Shown here: one piece after another, positions 43,974 through 45,149 of the stretch
How the letters are laid out: each line of letters opens with the position of its first letter
Numbering within the stretch: position 1 is the first letter of the stretch
Source: an uncultured Clostridia bacterium
Lineage (GTDB): Bacteria > Bacillota > Clostridia > TANB77 > CAG-508
NCBI GenBank assembly: GCA_944391745.1
Contig: CALXUS010000003.1
Location: forward strand, 27,732-91,731
DNA: 64,000 bases
Direction of reading: 5' to 3'
Program-made: the position numbers and the translations under genes
The notes under the pieces: model-generated
The model's database searches: none
Told to the model about the DNA's origin: nothing
What the model saw: only the letters and a program-made list of their open reading frames with translations

Positions 43974-45149
43974 ATGGAATACAGTAAATTGGGTAAAGAA
44001 TTAGAAATATATACAACAGTAGATTATATAGGAAAAGGATTTCCAATCATACTTCCAAATGGTGCAAAAATGATGAAAATACTTCGTGAAATGGTGGAAA
44101 GTGCTGAAGAAAAAAGAGGGTATTCTGTTGTAAGAACACCTAGTGCGTCTAGAGCAGAAATATATATGATAGAAGATAGATGGGAACAGGAAAAAAACAA
44201 TATTTTTACTATAGAAGATGAAGAAGAGCAAAATTCTATTGTTTTAAGACCTTATGTGAGACCATTTCATTGCAGTTTGTATGCTACAAAACAGCATAGT
44301 TATAAAGAGTTGCCTATAAAATATGGAGAAACTTCAACAGTTTTTAGAGATGAACCAACTAGCAAAATAAGAGGATTAACATGTATGAGACAATATTCAT
44401 TTTCTGATGCTAGTATTTTCACTTCACCTGAATTACTTGAAAAGATGTTAGTTGAGTCTGTAGAATTAGAGCAATATTTTATGGAAAAATTAGATTTGAA
44501 TGTCGAATATAAAATATCAACATGGAATACAAATGCAAAAGAAAATTACATTGGAACGATACAAGAATGGGATTTGTGTGAAGGGTTAATGGAAAAAGTC
44601 TTAAAAGATTTAAACATAAAATATGTGAAAAATCAAAATGCAATGATGTATGGTCCAAGTATCCAAGTATATTATAATGAAAAATTATTAGCAAAAATAG
44701 AAATAGATTTTGAAATTACACATAGATTTGATTTAAAATATACAGATAAAGATGGGCTAGAAAAAATTCCTATATATATTCATAGACAAGATTTAGGCTG
44801 CTACGAAAGTATGCTTGCAATATTAATAGAAAAATATCAAGGAGAATTTCCTACATGGATAGCTCCAGTGCAGTGCATTATAATTCCAGAATATGATGAA
44901 TATATAGATTATGCTAATGAGTTAAAAGAAAAATTAAGAGACAGAAGAGTTAGGGTTTCGGTAGATTTTACAGATAAAGAAGTAGATGAAAAAATAGAAA
45001 AAGCTAAGAAATTTAAAATTCCTTATATAGTTTTAATAGGAAAAGAAGAGTATAATAGCAATAATGTTTTAGTTATGAGATATGGAAAAAAAGAAACAAG
45101 ACATTACACTTTAGATGAAGTTATGCAAAGGTTTGAAAGGAGAAAATAA
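43974..45149 (+). CDS. truncated ThrRS-like class II aaRS paralogue (catalytic core plus anticodon-binding domain only) with substituted active-site residues
   Basis: It starts exactly at the catalytic-domain boundary (MEYSKLGKELEIY versus DHRKIGKDLNLF in thrS). It aligns with in-window thrS through LRP....P.H, HSYK.LPI, FR.E, DA..F, IHR..LG and FP.W.AP.Q. ATG 43974 after AGAGGAAAAG. Confidence 0.8.
   Translation: MEYSKLGKELEIYTTVDYIGKGFPIILPNGAKMMKILREMVESAEEKRGYSVVRTPSASRAEIYMIEDRWEQEKNNIFTIEDEEEQNSIVLRPYVRPFHCSLYATKQHSYKELPIKYGETSTVFRDEPTSKIRGLTCMRQYSFSDASIFTSPELLEKMLVESVELEQYFMEKLDLNVEYKISTWNTNAKENYIGTIQEWDLCEGLMEKVLKDLNIKYVKNQNAMMYGPSIQVYYNEKLLAKIEIDFEITHRFDLKYTDKDGLEKIPIYIHRQDLGCYESMLAILIEKYQGEFPTWIAPVQCIIIPEYDEYIDYANELKEKLRDRRVRVSVDFTDKEVDEKIEKAKKFKIPYIVLIGKEEYNSNNVLVMRYGKKETRHYTLDEVMQRFERRK

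Follow-up and report, generated by a model that had tools for sequence, protein, structure and literature searches.

A truncated threonyl-tRNA synthetase paralogue with a replaced catalytic site and its constant partner gene in uncultured gut Clostridia

What can a shortened copy of threonyl-tRNA synthetase (ThrRS) do in a genome that also has the intact enzyme? The question is raised by a stretch of 64,000 nucleotides (nt), here called the window, from an uncultured Clostridia bacterium (GenBank assembly GCA_944391745.1, contig CALXUS010000003.1, positions 27,732 to 91,731 of the forward strand). The window contains a full-length housekeeping thrS at 31666..33639 (+ strand), with its catalytic residues all intact, and a ThrRS-derived paralogue of 391 amino acids (aa) at 43974..45149 (+). 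A gene of 727 aa, referred to below as the partner, follows the paralogue. A preliminary description of the window, made from its letters, had drawn attention to the paralogue and its altered residues. The paralogue is probably an inactive tandem partial duplicate of thrS that now acts as a non-catalytic subunit of the partner protein, in a housekeeping role with a possible link to translation.

Domain content and catalytic site of the paralogue

The assignment of the paralogue as a ThrRS-derived pseudo-synthetase draws on Pfam, NCBIfam, and PDB matches, on a residue table, and on the ratio of nonsynonymous to synonymous substitution rates (dN/dS). Its Pfam domains are the class II core PF00587 (E 1e-21) and the HGTP anticodon-binding domain PF03129 (E 7e-14), with no others; Pfam finds neither a TGS nor an editing domain in the 391 aa. 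Residues 2-388 align end to end with 1evk, an N-truncated construct of E. coli ThrRS, and the corresponding stretch of S. aureus ThrRS (1nyq) comprises residues 242-630. The paralogue also aligns end to end with 3ugq. The protein thus begins at the catalytic-domain boundary, lacks TGS and editing domains, and retains the fold landmarks and the C-terminal anticodon-binding domain, all of which the preliminary description had proposed. The ATG at 43974 is taken as the start in preference to an upstream TTG at 43938, because the homologues all begin with MEYSKLGKEL and a GAGG Shine-Dalgarno sequence lies 5' of the ATG.

The paralogue is 33% identical to the thrS of the same window (E 2e-71). With TIGR00418, the equivalog model for threonine--tRNA ligase, it scores 287.4 bits and misses the curated cut-off of 383.65 bits, whereas the housekeeping thrS scores 748.3 bits. 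TIGR00443 matches both proteins weakly (E 6.6e-5 for the paralogue and 6.4e-5 for the housekeeping enzyme), and this match is read as generic class II similarity since it is no stronger for the paralogue. A PHROG scan returns the generic ThrRS PHROG only.

The catalytic site was compared using E. coli ThrRS residue numbers, mapped onto 114 members of the paralogue family, and a side-by-side residue table of 14 diverse paralogues and 22 canonical thrS genes. His309 of ThrRS acts in aminoacyl transfer. The roles of the zinc triad that recognises threonine (Cys334, His385, and His511), Asp383, Gln381/Gln484, Tyr462, and Tyr313/Arg363 have been described (PMC9880928), and Phe379 and Arg520 stack on the adenine (PMC11252418). 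In the window paralogue, RPMNCPHH of the housekeeping enzyme is replaced by RPYVRPFH (Cys334 to Arg), QNDAHLF by FSDASIF (His385 to Ser), and HRAILGSSDRF by HRQDLGCYESM (His511 retained, motif-3 Arg520 to Ser), and the FR.E of motif 2 is kept. Alignment with the housekeeping thrS and with ThrRS structures gives each of these exactly as first reported, and together with the 114-member table it upholds the earlier mapping of the zinc-ligand and motif-3 positions. Further substitutions are His309 to Arg, Tyr313 to Glu, Met332 to Tyr, Arg375 to Cys, Gln381 to Phe, Lys465 to Ser, and Thr482 to Lys. Gly463, where the change G463S confers obafluorin resistance on ThrRS (PMC11252418), is unchanged.

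The same positions are altered throughout the family. The Cys334 column holds R, K, Q, S, M, Y, A, or P and is the most variable of all (2.88 bits), and the His385 position is Ser in all 114 members. His309 is Arg in every member, Tyr313 is lost, and the Lys465 position is Ser or Ala. At the Arg520 position N, S, Q, and K are found among the replacements, with Asn or Ser in 98 of the 114 and Arg in only six. The Arg375 position is Cys or Lys in 89 members, the Gln381 position is hydrophobic, and the Gln479 and Thr482 positions vary. Other residues persist, with His511 retained in 103 members, Arg363 in 107, and Glu365 in 110; one deep member also lacks Arg363, Asp383, and His511.

Among the 14 diverse paralogues, His309, Tyr313, Met332, Cys334, His385, Lys465, and Thr482 are absent from all and Arg520 from 13, whereas each of these catalytic residues, and the zinc triad with them, is retained in 22 of 22 canonical thrS genes. 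No intermediates lie between the two sets, which places the losses before the radiation of the paralogue clade. Variability is higher at the ATP-contact positions (1.44 bits) than in the catalytic domain on average (1.03), and lower at the positions of the former threonine pocket (0.65). The paralogues also have new invariant residues, namely E67-D68-R69, Y94, F98-H99-C100, and S144-D145-A146-S147. Judged from its residues, the paralogue is not a standard threonine-charging enzyme. The earlier doubt about such charging is supported by a whole family without the zinc Cys and His385, without His309 and Lys465, and usually without the motif-3 Arg.

The anticodon-binding domain is altered as well. 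Glu600 reads G35 and Arg609 reads U36, and Asn575 and Arg583 are also anticodon residues (in part PMC4756836). Glu600 is kept in 104 of the 114 paralogues, Arg609 in 29, Asn575 in 23, and Arg583 in none. The net charge of the domain does not differ between the paralogue and real ThrRS and is uninformative. The tRNA(Thr)-binding pseudo-enzyme suggested in the preliminary description draws slight support from the retained Glu600, and the loss of Arg609, Asn575, and Arg583 speaks against it.

A protein search with the paralogue yields more than 100 clusters at 90% identity, all of about 390-400 aa, with 48-100% identity to the query; genome and metagenome scans extend the family down to 41% identity. 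In the source databases its members are labelled 'hypothetical protein' or are unnamed. Twenty diverse paralogues share 76 invariant columns. The dN/dS of the paralogue is 0.065-0.105 (about 0.07), that of the partner about 0.18, and that of thrS about 0.05, all of them approximate values as dS is near saturation. On these substitution rates the paralogue is under strong purifying selection and is not decaying.

In one species the paralogue is split into ORFs (open reading frames) of 197 and 207 aa by a frameshift in an A-run (L040 6001-7177 and L054 3797-4973). Two independent assemblies show this split in identical form, with the partner intact. It may reflect a recent disruption of the gene, an error in sequencing the homopolymer, or programmed frameshifting.

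The partner gene and the origin of the pair

The partner (45152..47335, +) has a TTG start and, from synteny, is regarded as an obligate partner gene. Its start lies 2 nt past the stop of the paralogue, and a GGAG Shine-Dalgarno sequence lies within the 3' end of the paralogue. In all 32 loci that reach far enough beyond the paralogue to show its next gene, that gene is the partner. The two overlap by an identical 19 nt in 14 loci and are 2-11 nt apart in 9 others. The coupling proposed for the window between paralogue and 727-aa ORF is therefore upheld in every locus of this set.

More than 3000 homologues of the partner were found, all of about 700-890 aa. The partner has no match in Pfam, NCBIfam, PADLOC, PHROG, or a PDB profile search, and Pfam likewise gives no match for 49 members of its family and 10 distant architectures. 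AlphaFold2 models the whole protein confidently, with a predicted local distance difference test (pLDDT) score of 80.7 and a predicted template modelling (pTM) score of 0.71, and residues 1-285 with a pLDDT of 89.0. The predicted layout comprises an alpha/beta N-terminal domain (1-281), a long antiparallel coiled coil, a helical region, and a beta-rich C-terminal domain. A conserved basic and aromatic segment, CKKSFFKK..YFFK, lies at the tip of the modelled coiled coil. Foldseek finds nothing at E <= 0.001 for the full model against PDB and BFVD or for the N-terminal domain against PDB. The best matches are CDTa (E 0.03) and a phage 'minor capsid protein' (E 1.7e-3, TM 0.15). An ADP-ribosyltransferase fold was considered; the hint is faint, it becomes no stronger with the N-terminal domain alone, and it is not relied on. 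As modelled, the partner may have a new fold.

The partners of close relatives vary in length by steps of about 7 aa (767, 770, 777, 784, 791, 799, and so on). The steps stem from a variable insert rich in N, K, and E near residue 640, which is absent from the window copy (about 47050-47110 of the window).

In relatives, thrS lies immediately upstream of the paralogue. Searching with a profile of distant partner homologues identified 80 metagenomic loci; the paralogue is upstream in five of them, and in about 20 a canonical full-length thrS takes the immediately upstream place and the paralogue is absent. One locus type contains thrS, a YbaK-like tRNA_edit gene, and then the partner. The neighbours in the remaining loci include metG with a polysaccharide deacetylase, dus, a holA-like gene, an integrase with spoIIM, and others.

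In a neighbour-joining tree the paralogues form one clade, and the thrS core of locus L103 is sister to it, with 100% support in 200 bootstrap replicates. This thrS (2437-4413) is full-length and looks active, since the catalytic residues, the Cys/His/His triad and the motif-3 Arg among them, are retained; a partner homologue follows 600 nt downstream. It has SEGH in place of DDAH, with Asp383 to Glu and Gln381 to Ile. Identity to the paralogues is 37-41% for this core, compared with 30-33% for other thrS genes. By tree position and identity, the L103 thrS may be a living relative of the ancestor of the paralogue.

Tree and synteny together suggest an order of events. The thrS gene and a partner gene of about 730 aa would already have been neighbours before the duplication. 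Then, within a single clade of uncultured gut Clostridia, a tandem duplication of the 3' two-thirds of thrS would have placed a copy between it and the partner gene. As the residue table documents, the zinc site, the ATP contacts, and the transfer histidine are gone from this copy, which still has the class II scaffold, motif 1, and a remodelled former threonine pocket. It would also have become tied to the partner. The two proteins would be made from one translationally coupled message, with the paralogue as a non-enzymatic recognition or regulation subunit of the partner, as HisZ serves HisG. The process they share is presumably a housekeeping one, possibly linked to ThrRS, tRNA, or translation. 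Two traits of a HisZ-like non-catalytic subunit are found here, as the catalytic residues are lost under purifying selection and the coupling to one partner gene is constant.

A more specific proposal is tentative and has less than an even chance of being right. The pseudo-ThrRS and the 730-aa protein might form a previously undescribed two-component machine, core to a lineage of gut Clostridia. The ThrRS-derived subunit would be its recognition surface for tRNA, ThrRS, or a ligand, and would replace a direct interaction between ThrRS and the partner that persists where the partner follows thrS.

Several points weigh against the non-catalytic subunit. About two thirds of the partner homologues without a paralogue are not beside thrS. 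The tree is a neighbour-joining tree on a fast-evolving clade, in which long-branch effects are possible. The evidence for a complex of paralogue and partner is indirect, consisting of co-location and translational coupling, and a link to translation is indicated by the neighbourhood only. Binding of tRNA(Thr) by the paralogue appears doubtful, with Arg609, Asn575, and Arg583 replaced in most members. Arg363, Glu365, Arg377, Asp383, Tyr462, and His511 are mostly retained, and given these residues the paralogue may bind a small ligand or carry out unorthodox chemistry.

Genes related to tRNA often adjoin the partner homologues, as six loci illustrate. They comprise thrS, the YbaK-like tRNA_edit gene, metG, dus, a TmcAL-like HIGH_NTase1 gene, trpS, and pseudouridine synthases. 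Such a neighbourhood is suggestive, and could simply reflect compact housekeeping neighbourhoods.

Alternative roles and the surrounding region

The alternative that survives best is that the paralogue regulates or decoys the real ThrRS, either as a heterodimer or by competition for tRNA(Thr), and so tunes charging or tethers the partner to ThrRS. It agrees with the motif-1 region, in which G49, Y50, T55, and P56 are invariant among the paralogues, with the thrS that adjoins in most loci, with the frequent position of paralogue-less partner homologues behind thrS, and with the retained Glu600. However, the sequence evidence does not tell a heterodimer from a homodimer, the other three anticodon residues are mostly lost, and in some lineages the pair lies away from thrS, beside gpr or trpS/mraZ. 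A role of this kind is unlikely, if conceivable.

In a second alternative the paralogue is an enzyme with a changed substrate. It would activate or bind another amino-acid-like ligand in the remodelled pocket, with the partner or some other acceptor receiving it, in the manner of amino acid:carrier-protein ligases, EpmA, and AsnA. The well-conserved former threonine pocket with its new invariant residues is in keeping with this, as are the retained Arg363, Glu365, and Arg377. In contrast, the ATP contacts (Arg520, Arg375, Lys465, Gln479, and Thr482) are replaced, by residues that differ between members, and the deep member that lacks Arg363, Asp383, and His511 fits poorly. To our knowledge, the catalytic class II relatives keep the motif-3 Arg, which also counts against a changed substrate. 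Such an enzyme is improbable. An amino acid:carrier-protein ligase in particular was considered and rejected, as the ATP motifs are degenerate and the neighbouring 727-aa protein has no PP-binding or other Pfam domain.

The third alternative, in which the paralogue is a component of a defence island that contains toxIN, requires a description of the surroundings. An inserted variable region at 33896..43807 (+), delimited by ORFs and synteny, comprises three tandem paralogous genes of about 900-980 aa, one of them split, and toxIN. The large ORFs are of 879 aa with a 123-aa split tail, 926 aa, and 983 aa, and their mutual identity is 53-68%. None of the three has a match in Pfam, NCBIfam, PADLOC, or PHROG. 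Three relatives have a single copy of the large gene at this position, with thrS on one side and the paralogue on the other; the other relatives have none. The interval is thus a variable hot spot that holds an unknown family of large proteins. A 23-nt hairpin element, GATGTGTCTATTATTGACACATC, occurs in identical form at 34028-34050 and 36984-37006 (- strand), near the 5' parts of the duplicated island genes.

The toxN/AbiQ gene is located at 40206..40742 (+) and belongs to a type III toxin-antitoxin system. The layout at 40013-40742 is complete, with promoter, repeats, terminator, and toxN/AbiQ. The promoter is a perfect TTGACA-18-TATAAT (40013..40042), and the terminator lies at 40185..40219. 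The repeats are two 39-nt tandem units (40102..40179), 72% identical, and were missed by Tandem Repeats Finder.

In the window, the paralogue is 3.2 kb downstream of toxN and just past the last island gene, and from this position the preliminary description had favoured a role in the island. This role does not hold. The closest relatives have the order thrS, a 58-nt spacer with a hairpin, paralogue, partner, and a convergent spoIVA, without toxIN, and most relatives have the pair without toxIN or the island genes. In 41 loci, between about 20 nt and 10 kb separate thrS from the paralogue, with 10 kb in the window. Since this gap varies and relatives without toxIN keep the gene order, the island represents an insertion next to a core pair of genes. 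The wider window belongs to the core chromosome, with PrkC, RsgA, Rpe, Nth, and thrS, and then spoIVA, CarD, DnaG, and SigA. PADLOC has no match for either the paralogue or the partner, and tblastn with the partner finds nothing in phage and plasmid collections. Scans of viral contigs give no hit for the paralogue and only one contig-edge fragment for the partner. The pair is a core two-gene module and is not part of the toxIN island, and membership of a defence island is very improbable.

The signals around the paralogue also separate it from the island. An AT-rich hairpin with a T-run, read from the sequence at 43820..43858 (+), ends the 983-aa gene, so that the paralogue needs its own transcription start in the window. 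Its short leader (43917..43973, +) contains a weak promoter-like site, TTGAAA, 17 nt, and TGCAAT, together with the GAGG; the promoter is a putative one. Many relatives have a terminator and then a TGnTATAAT extended -10 just 5' of the paralogue. In other relatives the paralogue lies 20-60 nt behind thrS, where read-through and a shared T-box leader may operate. In the window, thrS is followed by a terminator-like hairpin (33644..33672, +). Its own leader contains a T-box (RF00230) at 31450..31648 (+), a full-length match of 60.3 bits (E 1.8e-12). A scan of the window at the gathering threshold reports no T-box because this leader scores about 60 bits and the Rfam gathering score is 93. The window has no T-box upstream of the paralogue, as had been noted.

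A sporulation role was also considered. The genes spoIVA, gpr, spoIIM, and pda adjoin some loci, but spoIVA is convergent and the promoters look sigma-A type; nothing upstream of the paralogue suggests a sporulation-specific promoter. The role was not adopted.

A back-up or antibiotic-resistant ThrRS, as in ThrZ, Anabaena T2, BorO, and ObaO, belongs to a known kind of duplicated ThrRS gene (PMC9437257). The known ones, however, are active and have the zinc triad, whereas the paralogues lack the triad, His309, Lys465, and Arg520, and the window copy falls under the TIGR00418 cut-off. The resistance-type paralogue named among the first candidates is excluded on the same ground, since such enzymes must stay active and the catalytic set is lost here. 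A back-up enzyme is extremely unlikely.

A pseudogene decaying after thrS duplication could be imagined from the many lost catalytic residues and the one frameshift-split species, but it has next to no likelihood in view of a dN/dS of about 0.07, the 76 invariant columns, and intact ORFs of constant length over 41-100% identity.

Significance and comparison with known systems

Catalytically dead synthetase paralogues form a small and informative class, to which HisZ, the HisRS-like domain of GCN2, and the accessory subunit of Pol gamma belong. For the pair described here the order of events can be reconstructed, from a partner behind thrS, through duplication of part of thrS, to the loss of catalysis. 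The pair consists of core genes of abundant uncultured gut Clostridia and might reveal a new process linked to ThrRS or tRNA. Finding its function would annotate two conserved 'hypothetical' families, with more than 3000 homologues of the partner. A literature search found no description of a truncated or inactive bacterial ThrRS paralogue of this kind, and no bacterial ThrRS-derived pseudoenzyme.

In other pseudoenzymes derived from aminoacyl-tRNA synthetases, namely the HisRS-like domain of GCN2, the accessory subunit of Pol gamma, and SLIMP (listed in PMC9437257), the class II fold serves to bind tRNA, nucleic acid, or protein and not to catalyse. These proteins are eukaryotic and are derived from HisRS, GlyRS/ProRS, and SerRS, respectively, whereas the paralogue is bacterial and derived from ThrRS.

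Extra thrS-derived genes beside a housekeeping copy include B. subtilis ThrZ, Anabaena T2, the BorO/ObaO immunity enzymes, and vertebrate TARSL2 (PMC9437257). They resemble the paralogue in this respect, but they are full-length or active, and none is described as dead or as paired with a partner gene of its own.

Closest in sequence and domain content are the active N-truncated forms of ThrRS. E. coli deltaN-ThrRS (1evk), yeast mitochondrial MST1, and crenarchaeal ThrRS-cat contain the catalytic core and the anticodon-binding domain and have no editing domain, like the paralogue. In contrast, they keep the Cys/His/His triad and the motif-3 Arg and charge tRNA(Thr), and the paralogues are without these residues.

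The closest analogue in kind is HisZ, the regulatory subunit of HisG. This bacterial paralogue of a class IIa synthetase no longer aminoacylates and serves as a non-catalytic subunit of a co-encoded protein. HisZ differs in having no anticodon-binding domain and a known enzyme as its partner, whereas the paralogue keeps its HGTP domain, has ThrRS as its parent, and is paired with an orphan coiled-coil protein.

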